Counted from the stretch's first letter, positions 13,763 to 55,890 are shown. The stretch is DNA of 64,000 nucleotides from Thermoflexia bacterium (GCA_011192175.1 DUEJ01000002.1:26-64025); one strand, 5' to 3'. Program-made: numbers and translations. The notes: generated from the sequence alone by a model not told the origin.

Positions 13763-15058
13763 CTACTGCTCAACCGCCTCTCCCCGCGTCACGCCTAACA
13801 TGCAGAGGAAGGCGATTAAAAAGAAGGCCGGCGCGACCAGGAAGATTAGGTTGTAATCACCGCCGCCCCATTCCACGATATAGCCGTTGGTGATGGGGCC
13901 GACGACGGCGGCCAGCTGTGAGGCGAGGTAGTAAAGGCCGGTGTAAGTGCCTAAGTCGGCATTGGAGGCGGCGGTATCAACGACCATAGGAAGCGAGTTG
14001 ATATTGATCAGCGCCCAGGCAATTCCGCCAACGATCAAGACGACCCAGATCAACGTGGCATTGCGGATAAAGTAGTGGGCTAGCAGCAGTGTGCAGAAAA
14101 TAATCAGTCCCGCCATGATGGTTTTGCGGCGTCCCAGCCGCCCCGATAGATAGCCGGCCGGTACGGCGAAGGCTAAGGAGGCGAGCGCCACGGCGCCAGT
14201 TAGAAGCGGGGCTTGTCCCGTGCTCATCCCTAGCTCGCTGACGCCGTAAGAGGAGAGGAAGGTCTCTAAGGCGTTATACCCCACAAACCAGCAGAAAATC
14301 GCCAGCATCAGGAATCCTAGGCTGCGGCGAGCTTCCGGGGAGATGCGCTTGATGCCGCGCAGTGCGTCCCAGCCCTCTTCTTCCGATCCCGAGGTGGCCT
14401 CAAAGGTTTGGCGTTCCTTGATAAAGATGAAGAGAAGCAAGATCGCCACTATCATCAGCCCGCCGCCGAAGATAAAAGGTGAGATGCGTCCCATCTGGTA
14501 AAGGGTATTGCTACCCAACGTGGCGACGAGAGCTCCCATACCGCCCATCAGGTTGATAATGCCGTTGGCCTGCGAACGCAACGGGCTGGGGGTGAGATCC
14601 GGCATCAGAGCGACGACGGGGGTGCGGAAGCCGGCCATCGCCAGCAAGAAGACGCCCACGGCCACCATAAATAGGGATAGTTGCGTGCTTAACTCCCCGG
14701 CTTGGCCGCTCAATTCTGGCGGGATCATACCGACGGTTAGGGGGATGAGGATGAAGGCGAGGATAGAGATGGGAGCGAGAACTAGAATGAAAGGCATCCG
14801 CCGTCCCCAGCGGGTCCAGACGCGGTCGGACCAAATGCCGATCAGCGGGAGGAGAAAGAAGGCAGCGACATTATCTAAGGTCATAATGACCCCGGTTAGC
14901 CCGGCTCCAAAGCCGAACCCTAGTTCGCCAGGGGCCTCGAAGTTGGGATTGCCGGCTTGTAAGAAGATGGGCACGTAGGCATTGTAAAGCGTCCATAATA
15001 CACTGGTACCGAAAAACCCAAAGCCGATGAGAAAAGTGCGTTTGTAATTCAATTTCAT
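13763..15058 (-). CDS. MFS-type (sugar/GPH-like) transporter
   Basis: 431 aa, about 12 hydrophobic helices, with a central charged loop (KERQTFEATSGSEEEG). Confidence 0.8.
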   Translation of the reverse strand: MKLNYKRTFLIGFGFFGTSVLWTLYNAYVPIFLQAGNPNFEAPGELGFGFGAGLTGVIMTLDNVAAFFLLPLIGIWSDRVWTRWGRRMPFILVLAPISILAFILIPLTVGMIPPELSGQAGELSTQLSLFMVAVGVFLLAMAGFRTPVVALMPDLTPSPLRSQANGIINLMGGMGALVATLGSNTLYQMGRISPFIFGGGLMIVAILLLFIFIKERQTFEATSGSEEEGWDALRGIKRISPEARRSLGFLMLAIFCWFVGYNALETFLSSYGVSELGMSTGQAPLLTGAVALASLAFAVPAGYLSGRLGRRKTIMAGLIIFCTLLLAHYFIRNATLIWVVLIVGGIAWALININSLPMVVDTAASNADLGTYTGLYYLASQLAAVVGPITNGYIVEWGGGDYNLIFLVAPAFFLIAFLCMLGVTRGEAVEQ

Positions 15059-51341: not shown

Positions 51342-52169
51342 ATGACGTTGAGAAGCTGGAAAATTGCTAATATCTTCATCTGGAGTGGGGTCACACTGCT
51401 CTTGTTGGGGATAGGGCTTAACTATCCGCTCTTTCAACCTTGTTTTGCTACGTTACTAAAAACCCGACAGCTTGCCGCGGCGCCTTCCTTTGAGGAGAGT
51501 GGAGCGGAGATACCCATCCCCCAGCTTGCCGCGGACGCGCCGCTAGCCAGTCGCCCCGTTGTTACCGTGACGGGACCGGCAACGCCAGAGAAGAGTCCTC
51601 CCGCTCCTGACGCCCGGACGGTGACAAGCACTCCTTTGCCGCCAACCGCAACTATTCCAGTTCCATCCCCCTCCCCAGCAGGGACGCTCCCTCAATATAT
51701 CCGCATCCCCTCTATCGGATTAGCAGCCCCCATCGTTCCAGTAAAAGAAAAAGCGCTAGCGAGTAGTGAAGCCGGCCAGATAACCTGGGGGGTGCCTGAT
51801 TGGGAGGCGGTCGGGTGGCATAATAGCTCGGCGTTACTGGGAGAGTCTGGCAATACGGTGCTCAATGGGCACAATACGACGCGGGGTGAGGTCTTCCGCG
51901 ACCTCTATCAAGTGGAGGAGGGCGCATACATTCTGCTCACAGGGGAAGATCAAAAAACCTATCCCTATCATGTTGCGCACATCTATATTTTGGAAGAACG
52001 GGGGCAGCCTCTGGAGGTGCGCCACGAAAACGCGCAGTACATTCAAACTACCCTTGATAAGAGAGTGACGTTGGTAACTTGTCATCCTTACGCCAGCACC
52101 CGTTACCGGTTAATTGTGATTGCCAGACCAACCGCTAAACTAAATTTGAGCGCAGGAAGAGGAGAATAG
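51342..52169 (+). CDS. sortase-family transpeptidase
   Basis: N-terminal TM and a Pro-rich linker. NTVLNGHNT (His), TLVTCHPY (TLxTC Cys), RYRLIVIA (Arg). Confidence 0.85.
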   Translation: MTLRSWKIANIFIWSGVTLLLLGIGLNYPLFQPCFATLLKTRQLAAAPSFEESGAEIPIPQLAADAPLASRPVVTVTGPATPEKSPPAPDARTVTSTPLPPTATIPVPSPSPAGTLPQYIRIPSIGLAAPIVPVKEKALASSEAGQITWGVPDWEAVGWHNSSALLGESGNTVLNGHNTTRGEVFRDLYQVEEGAYILLTGEDQKTYPYHVAHIYILEERGQPLEVRHENAQYIQTTLDKRVTLVTCHPYASTRYRLIVIARPTAKLNLSAGRGE

Positions 52170-52171
52170 AG

Positions 52172-52672
52172 ATGTTAGTCAAATTAGTACGCCGTATCCG
52201 CCGTAATCATGCTCTGGAACATGCTACTATCAACTTGTTAGGCCGGCTCCAGAGCGATTCACAGACAGTCGGAATTTCTGGCCCCCGAGGGTTCACGCTC
52301 TACACCGATCTCACCATAGAAGAAGTTTATCCCGCTGTACAGCAGGCCTTAGCGGCATTGCAGCAAGGGCGTGCGGAGCTGGCTATACACCCTAACTGTG
52401 GAACTAACCTTCTGACCACGGCGTTGCTCACCACCATCACGACGGTGTTAGGATTACGGCGTAAACAGGAACAGAAATCTGATCGCGTGGAGAATTTCCT
52501 GCAATTGGTACTCCTTAACGCGCTGATGTTGGTGCTGGCCCGCCCCATGGGTTTTTGGGTCCAGGCCAATCTGACGGTGGATCCCCGGGTGCAAGACCTC
52601 AAAATCTCGGCCATCCTCAGCCGGCAGCGAGGTAGATTACAATGCATCGAAGTTCAGACGGTACAAGGGTAA
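52172..52672 (+). CDS. conserved hypothetical protein with RNHALEHAT motif
   Basis: 166 aa with a hydrophobic central segment. It is tightly packed between the sortase and holA genes (2-4 nt gaps). Confidence 0.5.
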   Translation: MLVKLVRRIRRNHALEHATINLLGRLQSDSQTVGISGPRGFTLYTDLTIEEVYPAVQQALAALQQGRAELAIHPNCGTNLLTTALLTTITTVLGLRRKQEQKSDRVENFLQLVLLNALMLVLARPMGFWVQANLTVDPRVQDLKISAILSRQRGRLQCIEVQTVQG

Positions 52673-52676
52673 ACTA

Positions 52677-53639
52677 ATGTTCTACATTATCCACGGCGAT
52701 AACCTGCTGGAGCAGCAGGAATATCTAGGCCAGTTACAAGCGGCGCAAGCGGCAAAGGAAGAGTTCGCGGATTTGAATAACGAGACTCTATCGGCGCCGC
52801 TCTCGTTGGGCAAGTTACAACATGCTTGTGATACGCTTCCCTTTTTAGGCGGCCACCGGCTTATCACTGTGAAGAACGCGCTGGCGGAGAGCAACAAAAG
52901 TTGGTTGAAAGAGGCGGCGGCTTATCTGCCCGGTCTTCCCGATTCCACCGTGCTGGTCTTTGTGGAGCAACGCGCGCTGCCCAAAAGCAACCCCGTCTTG
53001 AAGTTGGCCCAGCAGCAAGGGAGCAGCGCGCGGATCAAGCTTTATATGCTCCCGCGACAAAAAGCCTTGTCTGGTTGGATCCGGGAACGTGCTCAGAAGT
53101 TGGGGAGCTGCATTGAGCCGGCTGCGGCAGCGTTGCTGGCACGCAATATCGGGGTCCAACTTCAGCAGCTGGATCAAGAGCTCCACAAGCTCAAACTCTA
53201 CCACGGGGAGAGCGGCGCGATCACGTTGGCAGAGGTGCGCTTGTTAGTGCCCTACGTGCAGAGCGCCGATGTCATCTTTGACTTGGTGGATGCACTAGGA
53301 CAGCGTAACCCGCGGATCGCGGCGCGGCATCTGCATCGTCTATTGGATACCAACGAACCGCCATTACGTATCTTTGGCATGATCGTGCGCCAATATCGAC
53401 TGCTGATCCAAGTGCGCTGGCTGATGCAACACCAGCATCCCGCAGTGGAGATCGCCAAGCGGCTCAAGTTACATCCTTATGTAACGAAAAAAACCTACCA
53501 GCAAGCCACGCTCTTCACGCACGCGCAGCTACTACAAGCTTATGAGATCCTCCGAGAGAGTGATCGGGCCATCAAAACCGGGAAGCTGAGCGCCGAAACC
53601 GCGTTAGATTTATTGGTGGCGCGTTTGACCGCGCTCTGA
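52677..53639 (+). CDS. holA: DNA polymerase III delta subunit
   Basis: 320 aa. N-terminal FYIIHGDN..., overall HolA helix pattern, and C-terminal AIKTGK. Confidence 0.75.
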   Translation: MFYIIHGDNLLEQQEYLGQLQAAQAAKEEFADLNNETLSAPLSLGKLQHACDTLPFLGGHRLITVKNALAESNKSWLKEAAAYLPGLPDSTVLVFVEQRALPKSNPVLKLAQQQGSSARIKLYMLPRQKALSGWIRERAQKLGSCIEPAAAALLARNIGVQLQQLDQELHKLKLYHGESGAITLAEVRLLVPYVQSADVIFDLVDALGQRNPRIAARHLHRLLDTNEPPLRIFGMIVRQYRLLIQVRWLMQHQHPAVEIAKRLKLHPYVTKKTYQQATLFTHAQLLQAYEILRESDRAIKTGKLSAETALDLLVARLTAL

Positions 53640-53702: not shown

Positions 53703-53927
53703 TTACTCGCTCTCTTCTCGTCCAATCCAGAGGTGATCCCGCAACACAGTTGCCGAAGGACGTAAAAGCACCCCGTTGACCTGCCGTTCCCCGTCGGGCA
53801 AAGATTGAGGGTTCACGTAGCAGATATTCGGGACCTCGCCAAACCGTTCACGATAACGTTTAACGGCTTTGGTCAGTTGCGAAGACAACCCTTTTTTTCT
53901 CCCGTACCAGAGTAATCCAATCTCCAT
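53703..53927 (-). CDS. 74-aa protein, unknown function (4th gene of the SOS-box operon)
   Basis: ATG 53927 shares one nt with the upstream stop (TGATG). MEIGLLWYGRKKGLSSQLTKAVKRYRERFGEVPNICYVNP... The tail (GREESE) is encoded by a GAGCGAG-type repeat. Confidence 0.5.
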   Translation of the reverse strand: MEIGLLWYGRKKGLSSQLTKAVKRYRERFGEVPNICYVNPQSLPDGERQVNGVLLRPSATVLRDHLWIGREESE

Positions 53928-54193
53928 CAGGAGACCTTCTGCGCTAAATACCACGCATTCAAATTCACATCTTGATAGAGATCAAAAATACCCTCCACGC
54001 ATTTCACCCGGAAGAAATGGCGTGGCTCTCTGCCGCCCCGGGCCATCTCCGTCCAGGCGCGTTCTACCGCGTAGACGTTATATTTCTCACCGCGCCAGAG
54101 AAAGCGTCGTGGAAAATAATTATGCCGCCGAGATAATAGAGCGATAGGTTCAGACTTACTCTGTGACCAGAGCGCAATTCCCCCAATATTCAT
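53927..54193 (-). CDS. 88-aa protein, unknown function (3rd gene of the SOS-box operon)
   Basis: ATGA overlap with the upstream gene. The pattern FLWRGEKYNVYAVERAW...HFFRVKCVEGIFDLYQD...WYLAQKV recalls small domains I remember next to ImuB-type polymerases (unverified). Confidence 0.55.
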   Translation of the reverse strand: MNIGGIALWSQSKSEPIALLSRRHNYFPRRFLWRGEKYNVYAVERAWTEMARGGREPRHFFRVKCVEGIFDLYQDVNLNAWYLAQKVS

Positions 54194-54579
54194 TGTTCTC
54201 CTCCTACAATCGTAAATTTACGTTCCGCCCGCGCCATCTCCCAGCTCCCTGCTTGCCGGTTATGCGCCCCCGGTTCTGCGCGCTGTGGCCCATAACCAGG
54301 TAAGGCGGAAGGAGCAATCACCACCACGGGGAGGTTTCGCTCTGCGGGTCGATATTGTCGCGCTTCTTGGTAATGCAGCTCCTGACGCCGCCAGATAAAC
54401 GCCAACAATCCCACCAGGGGAAGCATGGCGATGATGCCTACTGCCAAGCCAATTAAGAGGGCCAGCGCATCATTACTAAGCCGTTGAGTGACGATCACCG
54501 CGACTGTAATGATAAATAGTATACTGACCAAAGCGCCAAACCGTTTGAGACGTTTGCCCAGGGACTCTTCTCTCTCCAT
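54190..54579 (-). CDS. small membrane protein (2 TM), unknown function (2nd gene of the SOS-box operon)
   Basis: GAGGAGG RBS before ATG 54579. Two hydrophobic helices followed by a cytoplasmic tail. Confidence 0.6.
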   Translation of the reverse strand: MEREESLGKRLKRFGALVSILFIITVAVIVTQRLSNDALALLIGLAVGIIAMLPLVGLLAFIWRRQELHYQEARQYRPAERNLPVVVIAPSALPGYGPQRAEPGAHNRQAGSWEMARAERKFTIVGGEQ

Positions 54580-54596
54580 CAACTACCTCCTCTCAG

Positions 54597-55697
54597 CTAG
54601 CTTGCTTCTGCATACAACAACCCTTTACGCTCCAAGTTAGGGACCCCCATACTGCTGTCTAGCCGAAAATTACCCGCTTTGGTGCGCAATTCCGCCTCAC
54701 TGACAAAGGCGACTTGGAATCGAATCGGTTCTCCGCCCCCGCCCACCGCTAGAAAATCACCGCGTCCGCTTAACAAATGCGCATCAGTGCCGCCGCGTCC
54801 CGTAGCCACTCTGGCATCACTGGCGGAGACCACTTTTCCCACCAATCGCAAGGGGAAGTTAGCCCGCATCAACCCACTCATGATTGCCGAAGAGGGGCGT
54901 TGCGTCGCGGCTACAATATGAATTCCCGCCTCGCGGCCCCGTTGCACCAAGCGCGTCAGTAATTTGGTGATCTCATCGCCGCCTTGAAAAATCAAGTCGG
55001 CCAGCTCGTCTATTAACAAGACAATGCAAGGGGAATCCTCTCGCTGGCGGTCGCGCATTTCCATCGCGCGTACCAATGATCTGAGAGCTTCTAATATCTC
55101 CGCCAGCTCTGTCACCGGAGGGCGCAACAAATGTGGCGCGCCCGTCAAGCCCTGAAAGGCACGCCCCTTAGGATCCAACGCCAACAAGCGCAATTGCTCT
55201 GGCCGGTGAGTCAAGAGCAGCGAGAGTGCAATAGTGCGCAATAAGACGCTCTTCCCGGAGCCGGTGGTGCCCGCGATCAAAATATGAGCTACTTCTGGCG
55301 AGGAGAGCCGCGCCAATAAAGGGAGCCCCTCATCGGTCAACCCTAGCAGCGCCGTAGAGAGCGGTACCGGATCTGGCGACCCATCGGCGGCTCTCAAAAT
55401 CGGCGGCAGCAGATTCGAGAGGGTTACTGGTTGTGGTTTAGGATTATCAAACGCCAAAATAACGCCCTCTTTGCCACGCTTGACCCGCAGAGTAGTTACC
55501 TTCAGAGACAAAGCCATATCGTCAGCCAGCCGGCGAATAGCAGCATAACGAATATGCGGCGCTGGACTCAAGAAAAACTTGATCAGCCGCGGGCCAACTG
55601 TCCCGCCAGTTACTCGGCCAGGAGCACGGTGTGCGAATAAGACACTTTCAACGCGATCTGCTTGATTTTCTAAATATCCGCGTAAAGGTTGGGACAT
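54597..55697 (-). CDS. stand-alone FtsK/SpoIIIE-type DNA-translocase ATPase domain protein
   Basis: 366 aa: GGTVGPRLIKFFLSP...IRRLADDMALSL (alpha domain), Walker A IAGTTGSGKS, Walker B IVLLIDELADL, GIHIVAATQRPS. There is no N-terminal TM region and no gamma domain. Confidence 0.85.
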   Translation of the reverse strand: MSQPLRGYLENQADRVESVLFAHRAPGRVTGGTVGPRLIKFFLSPAPHIRYAAIRRLADDMALSLKVTTLRVKRGKEGVILAFDNPKPQPVTLSNLLPPILRAADGSPDPVPLSTALLGLTDEGLPLLARLSSPEVAHILIAGTTGSGKSVLLRTIALSLLLTHRPEQLRLLALDPKGRAFQGLTGAPHLLRPPVTELAEILEALRSLVRAMEMRDRQREDSPCIVLLIDELADLIFQGGDEITKLLTRLVQRGREAGIHIVAATQRPSSAIMSGLMRANFPLRLVGKVVSASDARVATGRGGTDAHLLSGRGDFLAVGGGGEPIRFQVAFVSEAELRTKAGNFRLDSSMGVPNLERKGLLYAEAS

Positions 55698-55722
55698 GCT
55701 AGCTCCTTACTATAATATGATT

Positions 55723-55736
55723 AGAACATCCGTTCT
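55723..55736. promoter_or_regulatory. LexA-type SOS box AGAACATCCGTTCT (proximal)
   Basis: GAAC-N4-GTTC palindrome located at about +1 of the minus-strand promoter. Confidence 0.7.
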
Positions 55737-55742
55737 TATCAT

Positions 55743-55771
55743 ATTATAGAACATCCGTTCTACTATGTCAA
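55743..55771 (-). promoter_or_regulatory. consensus promoter TTGACA-17-TATAAT of the FtsK-like operon
   Basis: The minus strand reads cTTGACAtagtagaacggatgttcTATAATatgataagaacggatgttct...AGGAGctagcATG. Confidence 0.7.
55748..55761. promoter_or_regulatory. LexA-type SOS box AGAACATCCGTTCT (distal, inside the -35/-10 spacer)
   Basis: Identical 14-mer, centre-to-centre 25 nt from the proximal box. It overlaps the first T of the -10. Confidence 0.7.
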
Positions 55772-55800: not shown

Positions 55801-55830
55801 TTGACAATTACGGAGGGCTTATGATATAGT
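55801..55830 (+). promoter_or_regulatory. promoter TTGACA-18-(TGa)TATAGT with extended -10
   Basis: Read directly. It is divergent from the SOS promoter and 233 nt upstream of the sigA start. Confidence 0.5.
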
Positions 55831-55852
55831 CAAGGTATTAGAGAAAAGATAG

Positions 55853-55890
55853 AAAGAGCACGGATGGTCTACGCCACCAGTGCTCTTTTT
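55853..55890 (+). terminator. hairpin + T5 about 25 nt downstream of the 55801 promoter
   Basis: aaagagcac / gtgctcttt forms a 9-bp stem with an 18-nt loop, ending in TTTTT. Confidence 0.45.

Follow-up and report, generated by a model that had tools for sequence, protein, structure and literature searches.

Why should an FtsK-type DNA motor that has neither a membrane anchor nor a gamma domain of its own be encoded behind two LexA boxes, together with three small proteins? This question is raised by a four-gene operon on the minus strand (positions 53,703 to 55,771) of a 64-kb stretch of DNA from a Thermoflexia bacterium (GCA_011192175.1 DUEJ01000002.1:26-64025), which is referred to below as the window. 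Gene 1 encodes the predicted motor, gene 2 a protein with two transmembrane (TM) segments, and genes 3 and 4 two very small proteins. We lean, by a modest measure and taking the inheritance of the locus jointly with the mechanism proposed below, towards an SOS operon that resides on the chromosome of Anaerolineae and Thermoflexia and is passed on vertically. The comparison rests on a scan with one genome per species that returned 80 gene-1 loci (numbered with the prefix L) from Anaerolineae, Thermoflexales and other Chloroflexota, several genomes contributing two to four of these loci each.

Two predicted LexA operators in one promoter

Read along the minus strand from 55771 to 55695, the region ahead of gene 1 consists of TTGACA, a 17-nucleotide (nt) spacer (TAGTAGAACGGATGTTC), TATAAT, ATGATA, the palindrome AGAACGGATGTTCT, AGGAG, CTAGC and the ATG of gene 1 (55697). 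A first-pass annotation of the sequence had described here a consensus -35/-10 pair with a 17-nt spacer and two identical palindromes, one in the spacer touching the -10 and the other covering the expected transcription start. A consensus promoter scan scored the promoter 12/12, and both palindromes were located as identical 15-nt copies (TAGAACATCCGTTCT) on the plus strand (55722-55736 and 55747-55761), 25 nt apart from start to start. The core motif GAAC-N4-GTTC occurs three times in 64 kb, namely in the two operators and once within a major facilitator superfamily (MFS) transporter gene at 14915, compared with a chance expectation of 0.68 from shuffled sequence. Both the window motif and the extended consensus of the related loci, TAGAAC-AWWT-GTTCTA, match the LexA (Cheo) box GAACN4GTTC of Gram-positive bacteria (Firmicutes; PMC2248561), which supports their reading as LexA operators.

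The box is widely conserved among the related loci. In 60 of the 80, the 200 nt ahead of gene 1 contain an exact GAAC-N4-GTTC, and 64 possess a box once lexA-led operons are counted. In total, 77 boxes fall in 21 kb of upstream DNA versus 16 in the remaining 586 kb of the loci (3.67 versus 0.027 per kb), an enrichment of about 134-fold. The promoter architecture also recurs, as TTGACA/TTGACC-17-TATAAT/TATGAT, the box lying in the spacer, directly behind the -10 or at both places. The commonest arrangement has the box just downstream of the -10, and the spacer position is shared by L001, L002, L008, L035, L081, L095 and others. Conservation of the paired boxes, which had been proposed as a check, was found in the nearest relatives, L001, L002 and L008, where the 25-nt double box recurs; with one degenerate copy it is also seen in L005, L006, L007, L025 and L080.

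The motif is further linked to lexA itself. In seven loci a LexA protein (LexA_DNA_bind plus Peptidase_S24) is encoded immediately upstream of gene 1 on the same strand. A box precedes lexA by about 30-45 nt in L068, L070, L071, L075, L076 and L078, and in L081 one box lies before an fpg-lexA pair and a second in the gene-1 promoter. The presence of the same box ahead of lexA is a classical sign of a LexA operator and a hallmark of autoregulation. The LexA protein of Dehalococcoides is also said to bind GAAC-N4-GTTC. The conservation of the box, its enrichment and the seven boxed lexA genes all speak for the first-pass claim of a LexA-repressed module, and we regard it as very probable, judging from these sequence patterns, that the operon is under LexA control through predicted binding to the two sites.

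Several observations on boxes and promoters stand apart from this result. L071 encodes two tandem lexA paralogues, 44% identical, upstream of gene 1 (L071:2443-3941), with a single box some 90 nt ahead of the first and a pair of boxes, spaced by 31 nt, immediately ahead of the second. Boxes within gene 2 (GAACGCAAGTTC at L031:5492, L035:5460, L055:5470 and L064:5596) were rejected as operators since GAA CGC AAG TTC is coding sequence for a conserved ERKF, which indicates that motif scans can be fooled. Two boxes about 60 nt apart are present upstream of gene 1 in L009, L015, L017, L019, L020, L021, L030, L033 and L041, and a terminator-like hairpin with a T run (CACGCC...GGCGTG TTCTTTTTT) lies between them, an arrangement that would fit an attenuator or a short leader RNA. 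In several distant orthologous loci the -35 is immediately preceded by repeated and inverted TTATCCCAAAT / ATTTGGGATAA elements (L081:6140-6190; L095 and L096, some 130-170 nt ahead of gene 1; L097), which a second regulator might recognise; no such element is evident in the window. Operator 2 of the window is the centre of an extended palindrome (Table 1). L001 has a palindrome with 19-nt arms that are 100% complementary (L001:3259-3298), although its arm sequence is unlike that of the window, and the 40-bp palindrome is absent in L002 and L008.

The four encoded proteins

The reading frames are closely packed, as had been described in the first-pass annotation. The stop of gene 1 (54597) is followed by GAGGAGG and by two possible starts of gene 2, TTG at 54582 and ATG at 54579, leaving a gap of 14 or 17 nt; the ATG lies 6 nt after GAGGAGG, a better ribosome-binding-site spacing than that of the TTG. 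Genes 2 and 3 overlap in ATGA (54193-54190) and genes 3 and 4 in TGATG (53929-53925). The coordinates of all features are collected in Table 1.

Table 1. Operon genes and promoter elements in the window (aa, amino acids)
Feature	Position	Strand	Basis or remark
-35 hexamer TTGACA	55766..55771	-	promoter scan; TTGACA/TTGACC at the same place in orthologous loci
LexA operator 1 (predicted), AGAACGGATGTTCT	55748..55761	-	occupies the 17-nt spacer; final T is the first base of the -10
-10 hexamer TATAAT	55743..55748	-	promoter scan
LexA operator 2 (predicted), AGAACGGATGTTCT	55723..55736	-	over the expected transcription start
Extended palindrome	55710..55749	.	centred on operator 2; 18-nt arms, 94% complementary; takes in the -10 and its mirror image
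Ribosome-binding site AGGAG	55703..55707	-	5 nt ahead of the gene-1 ATG
Gene 1, 366 aa, FtsK/SpoIIIE-type alpha+beta motor	54597..55697	-	PF17854 and PF01580
Gene 2, 129 aa (130 from TTG 54582), two-TM protein	54190..54579	-	alignment, start choice
Gene 3, 88 aa, standalone ImuB-C (DUF6504)	53927..54193	-	PF20114
Gene 4, 74 aa, small alpha/beta protein	53703..53927	-	homologue family

Gene 1 is assigned on sequence grounds as an FtsK-type alpha+beta hexameric motor for double-stranded DNA (dsDNA) without an anchor or gamma domain of its own. Its ATPase motifs are intact (Walker A GTTGSGKS, Walker B LLIDELAD, and ATQRPS), an alpha and beta motor with Walker A, Walker B and arginine finger was recognised, and residues 9-339 align with residues 44-412 of the Escherichia coli FtsK alpha-beta structure 2IUS. 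The protein begins at the alpha domain (residue 8), with no TM segment and no FtsK_4TM match ahead of it. No FtsK_gamma match was obtained either, in keeping with the mere ~25 residues that follow the beta domain. FtsK_alpha and FtsK_SpoIIIE were the only domains found, and together with the 2IUS alignment they agree with the earlier description of a motor core lacking the membrane and gamma domains. More than 3600 homologues were retrieved at E ≤ 1e-20; the best 120 of these are mostly about 340-390 aa long and, where a source is named, come from Chloroflexota metagenome-assembled genomes (MAGs). The TraB family model NF041214 gave 34.5 bits against a cut-off of 800. For gene 1, PADLOC (SspH, mad8) and PHROGs both returned only generic FtsK-like ATPase matches, and neither of the two matched genes 2-4.

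The two TM segments noted earlier in gene 2 were found again. Its homologues conserve a PPVVVV.P stretch, and the C-terminal ER.FTIVGGE is almost invariant. No Pfam or NCBIfam family matched gene 2 above threshold, and LysM or any other defining domain of YneA/ChiZ was likewise missing in these two collections, leaving the first-pass comparison with SOS-induced division inhibitors without a domain to rest on. Gene 2 was never seen without the ATPase gene in the loci examined, and because of this constant partner the likeness to a division inhibitor remains an analogy only. The lexA-gene 1 operons of Thermoflexus have no detectable gene 2.

The product of gene 3 matches PF20114 with 35.3 bits (cut-off 24.2), and its AlphaFold2 model (AF2; mean predicted local distance difference test score, pLDDT, 84) is all-beta with six strands. 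W81, near the C-terminus, and R62 are invariant and R34 is nearly so. The model matched no PDB fold below E 0.1, and a PDB sequence-profile search also returned nothing. Standalone small ImuB-C proteins are documented in LexA-linked repair operons, and ImuB-C, which is otherwise the end of ImuB, is beta-rich with a conserved C-terminal Trp (PMC3765255). A 2026 survey modelled it as a beta-barrel of novel fold, in contact with the RecA-like ImuA and with DnaE2 in AlphaFold models of the mutasome (PMC12926913). Gene 3 agrees with both accounts in its beta-rich structure, its conserved C-terminal Trp and basic residues and its lack of a known fold. In Deinococcus deserti the cassette lexA-imuY-imuB-C-dnaE2 corresponds to Deide_1p01870-1p01900 (PMC8072749); its imuB-C gene (Deide_1p01890) was located on plasmid 1, annotated as 'DUF6504 family protein', and the product scored 30 bits against PF20114. 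Alignment of this protein with the gene-3 family by hhalign gave a probability of 92.6% (E 4e-7) across the W-x-G...Y-x-V...W core. The PF20114 match and this homology identify gene 3, by sequence comparison, as a standalone ImuB-C (DUF6504) protein. The first-pass hunch that gene 3 resembled small domains adjacent to ImuB was thus well placed, DUF6504 being the family of the standalone ImuB-C of D. deserti. The gene is encoded without a Y-family polymerase, DnaE2 or other repair enzyme beside it. Among the ImuB-C contexts listed in the ImuB-C literature no FtsK-like ATPase is included, and the word 'FtsK' occurs 0 times in PMC3765255.

Gene 4 defines a new family of small alpha/beta proteins. 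Its conserved motifs comprise GLLW, a core of C-[YF]-V-[HN]-P and H.W.G, and the 74-aa start (MEIGLLW) is the one kept in homologues. The family comprises 868 cluster representatives at E ≤ 1e-3, and the members with a named source are Chloroflexota. Its AF2 model (pLDDT 91) has an alpha/beta fold; the protein fell into no Pfam or NCBIfam family, the model matched nothing in the PDB below E 0.1, and a PDB sequence-profile search was equally negative. When viral structures were searched, uncharacterised small phage proteins came up, but only weakly (best E 5e-3). As a candidate for the missing gamma domain gene 4 was rejected, the modelled fold being alpha/beta and not a winged helix.

Relatives of gene 4 were also seen in other settings. 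A 190-aa relative with a Lys/Ala/Pro-rich (histone-H1-like) tail lies between mraY and murD in a dcw cluster of Chloroflexota MAGs (L082:7001-7573), a 74-aa relative occurs in a prophage between primase and terminase plus portal genes (L083:7001-7225), and those of L093 and L094 are surrounded by series of small unknown genes. As leads, these settings point to a possible connection with cell division or with the interplay of phage and host.

Inheritance of the operon and its paralogues

The operon of the window is flanked by holA on one side and by rpoD, which encodes the primary sigma factor, on the other. Every four-gene locus examined is, as in the window, convergent with holA, followed by DUF6391 and then sortase, and three further lookups that started from DUF6504 proteins led to the same holA-DUF6391-sortase arrangement. 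This constant synteny argues for a vertically inherited chromosomal operon and not a mobile element. In line with this, integrase, Rep and Xis genes were absent from the window locus and from every four-gene locus, and tblastn searches of plasmid and phage collections gave no match to gene 3 or gene 4. The preservation of the four-gene arrangement in relatives, another check proposed at the outset, could thus be seen in its holA-linked form. In the window the holA-DUF6391-sortase block, which is kept beside the operon across the class, occupies 51342-53639.

Of the 80 loci, about 68 have gene 2 directly behind gene 1, and about half contain genes 3 and 4. The latter pair occurs only in the holA-linked copy, always downstream of genes 1-2 and often with overlapping stop and start codons, and its linkage to genes 1-2 holds from 92% to about 48% gene-1 identity. 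No polymerase gene was found near the operon in any locus, the only repair-linked neighbours being lexA and, in L081, fpg. In one clade, to which the loci with boxes about 60 nt apart belong, genes 2 and 3 are separated by an additional gene of about 300 aa (L020:1762-2739; same position in L009, L015, L017, L019, L021, L027, L030, L033 and L041). Its product contains a GDSM-bearing S24 (LexA/UmuD-like) peptidase region scoring 22.1 bits, just below the cut-off, and an N-terminus weakly matching the bacterial Death-like domain 1.

Pairs of genes 1 and 2 are present in two to four copies per genome, most of them with their own box. The lexA-linked Thermoflexus copies branch deepest in a neighbour-joining (NJ) tree of gene 1. 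Four-gene and two-gene copies are intermixed in this tree, which suggests that the gene 1-2 pair was duplicated more than once. The two-gene copies as a group were considered as mobile and rejected, their neighbours being glycoside hydrolases, an Hsp70-like protein, methyltransferases and similar genes. Six loci (L052, L057, L059, L061, L062 and L063) are element-like: they have no LexA box, their gene 1 carries an extra C-terminal ~80 aa, and their neighbours encode a large serine recombinase, an Xis-like HTH_17 protein, a primase Zn-ribbon/Toprim protein, a DNA methylase and an actin-like partition protein (ALP). They are candidate elements of Anaerolineae resembling actinomycete integrative and conjugative elements (AICEs), and they form two clades inside the chromosomal radiation of the tree. 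These copies indicate that the motor-anchor pair also serves in integrative, probably transferable, elements; they do not make the window locus mobile. The first-pass annotation had named the edge of a mobile element as the alternative to an SOS operon. For the four-gene operon its chromosomal synteny speaks against such an edge, but for some gene 1-2 paralogues the suspicion proved justified.

Possible roles and relation to known systems

On the sequence evidence our best guess is that the operon encodes a DNA translocase that is induced by damage, tethered to the membrane and assisted by adaptors for lesions or polymerases. LexA dimers would occupy both operators, one in the spacer touching the -10 and the other over the start of a consensus sigma-70 promoter, and with operators across the promoter the operon would stay silent until RecA-stimulated self-cleavage of LexA after DNA damage. 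The gene-1 motor may then dock on the cytoplasmic tail of gene 2 (ER.FTIVGGE), forming a 'split FtsK' at the membrane or septum that would pump DNA without KOPS-type direction (KOPS, FtsK-orienting polar sequences) and could free or reposition damaged, unsegregated chromosomes in septate filaments. ImuB-C and gene 4 would be adaptors coupling the motor to lesions, translesion polymerases or the division machinery, an idea that draws on the binding of ImuB-C to RecA-fold and polymerase partners in mutasomes. The gene-4 relative inside the dcw division cluster is in favour of such a coupling. We hold this specific cellular role tentatively, as less probable than the opposite. More speculative still, and quite improbable in our estimate, is a new SOS machine in which the ImuB-C adaptor brings a membrane-anchored FtsK-type pump to damaged DNA, followed either by transport of chromosomal DNA across septa, so that cells of the multicellular filament could provide each other with intact templates for repair by recombination, or by delivery of lesions to a membrane-bound repair/mutagenesis complex, integrative elements having later borrowed the motor-anchor pair. 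Several points weigh against a damage-induced translocase with adaptors. ImuB-C has so far been tied to polymerases and not to translocases, and genes 3 and 4 may merely be a co-transcribed separate function. Two to four gene 1-2 copies per genome are unusual for a simple rescue function, and the presence of some copies in integrative elements makes a role in DNA transfer possible. Moreover, 16 of the 80 loci are without an exact box, and lexA itself is not in the 64-kb window.

The strongest of the rival explanations treats genes 3-4 as merely co-transcribed polymerase accessories: two unrelated SOS functions would share one transcript, a translocase from genes 1-2 and, from genes 3-4, an accessory to a PolY/DnaE2 encoded elsewhere, supplemented in one clade by an S24 UmuD-like protein, and there would be no four-protein machine. 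Gene 1-2 pairs indeed stand alone with their own LexA box in many loci while genes 3-4 are only holA-linked, all documented contexts of ImuB-C are polymerases or repair enzymes (PMC3765255, PMC12926913, PMC8072749), and an S24-peptidase-like gene is inserted between genes 2 and 3 in that clade. Yet in every locus seen genes 3-4 follow genes 1-2 in the same operon, a linkage that persists over the whole range of gene-1 identity given above, and none of these loci has a polymerase gene nearby. We therefore count two separate functions as unlikely, though with an appreciable share of the probability. A conjugation-type, TraB-like transfer of dsDNA between filament cells after damage, or a remnant of an element, is a rather improbable account of the gene 1-2 pair. 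It would fit the six paralogous loci beside serine recombinase, Xis-like, primase, methylase and partition genes, the several gene 1-2 copies per genome and the weak plasmid TraB match of gene 1 (NF041214), but the window and all four-gene loci are without integrase, Rep or Xis, with holA at the flank and rpoD in the window, and the two-gene copies have ordinary metabolic neighbours. The element copies, for their part, differ by their C-terminal extension and their lack of a LexA box and are nested within the chromosomal radiation, with the lexA-linked Thermoflexus copies at its base, and genes 3 and 4 are unmatched in the plasmid and phage collections.

The two remaining alternatives concern the repressor and the effector. 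That the palindrome is the operator of a non-global repressor, either a module-specific LexA paralogue or an S24-like protein, and not part of a general SOS response would account for the two tandem lexA genes of L071 and for the absence of lexA from the window, and it has a parallel in the Deinococcus mutagenesis cassettes that carry their own lexA copies (PMC8072749). However, the motif is the established LexA box of Gram-positive-type systems, the adjoining regulators contain LexA_DNA_bind and Peptidase_S24 so that even a paralogue would respond to RecA, and the box of L081 also precedes the fpg-lexA pair; we find this alternative very unlikely. Still smaller is the chance we allow that gene 2 is the effector, an SOS-induced division blocker like YneA, SidA or ChiZ with the ATPase as an auxiliary. 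A small two-TM protein under LexA boxes and a gene-4 relative in the dcw cluster would suit such a blocker, but gene 2 lacks LysM and the other domains of known inhibitors, does not occur without the ATPase in the loci examined, and has the same partner in mobile elements, for which blocking division would be hard to explain, while the Thermoflexus lexA-gene 1 operons do without a detectable gene 2.

A LexA-controlled translocase of the FtsK family would have a precedent in E. coli, where ftsK is SOS-induced from the dinH promoter (PMC4080785). As with ftsK/dinH, the operon would place an FtsK-family dsDNA translocase in the LexA regulon, and gene 1 aligns across the whole alpha-beta motor. 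E. coli FtsK, however, combines a 4-TM domain, a linker and a KOPS-reading, XerCD-activating gamma domain in a single 147-kDa protein, whereas the motor of the window is a 366-aa alpha-beta core with a separate two-TM anchor and no gamma domain, is multi-copy, and is co-transcribed with an ImuB-C gene and gene 4. The operon likewise resembles the lexA-led ImuB-C cassettes in being predicted to be LexA-controlled, often starting with lexA, and in combining ImuB-C (DUF6504) with a RecA-fold protein. It departs from them in that no Y-family or DnaE2 polymerase is encoded in or near it, the RecA-fold partner is an FtsK-type hexameric pump instead of ImuA, and a membrane protein is added.

The small Streptomyces membrane protein SmeA reportedly (Ausmees et al. 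2007, cited in PMC9380542) is encoded beside the SpoIIIE/FtsK-like ATPase SffA and targets it to septa. Gene 2 is likened to SmeA through this description of the arrangement and not through sequence. The Bacillus protein SftA is a soluble FtsK-like motor without TM segments. To our knowledge the SmeA-SffA and SftA systems are developmental or housekeeping ones and are not LexA-controlled, and unlike either of them the motor of the window has an ImuB-C partner. With the AICE-type TraB of actinomycetes the operon shares a single FtsK-like motor, and its gene 1-2 paralogues occur in serine-recombinase elements; unlike TraB, gene 1 of the window has neither TM segments of its own nor a C-terminal winged helix-turn-helix (wHTH) that reads clt repeats, and its locus is not in an element. 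Like YneA, ChiZ and SidA, gene 2 is a small membrane protein under predicted LexA control, but it shares no domain with them and is the partner of an ATPase, not a stand-alone inhibitor.

A literature search found no description of the four-gene operon. SOS-induced FtsK, small membrane partners of FtsK-like ATPases and ImuB-C in lexA-led cassettes are already known; what is new is their combination, its class-wide conservation, the physical link to lexA and the multiplication within genomes. The operon looks like an undescribed branch of the SOS response across a class of filamentous bacteria. If this is true, Anaerolineae and Thermoflexia, a large and poorly studied group, would have a conserved, strongly repressed member of the SOS regulon that falls outside the repair enzymes, the polymerases and the known checkpoint proteins. 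ImuB-C would gain a polymerase-free context in which the idea of a general adaptor for RecA-fold machines can be tested, and the natural 'split FtsK', a motor with a separate anchor and no gamma domain, would lend itself to studies of pump targeting. The paralogues would in addition connect a chromosomal stress module with transfer genes of integrative elements in filamentous Chloroflexota.

On the other side of the promoter region, a divergent plus-strand promoter, TTGACA-18-TATAGT with an extended-10 TG (55801-55830), faces rpoD (56063). The rpoD leader contains a stem-loop (AAAGAGCAC...GTGCTCTTT) followed by a T run at about 55850-55890, which could be an attenuator of the sigma factor gene, and a degenerate LexA-like site (AGCACGGATGGTCT, 55857-55870, two mismatches) lies inside this stem-loop.

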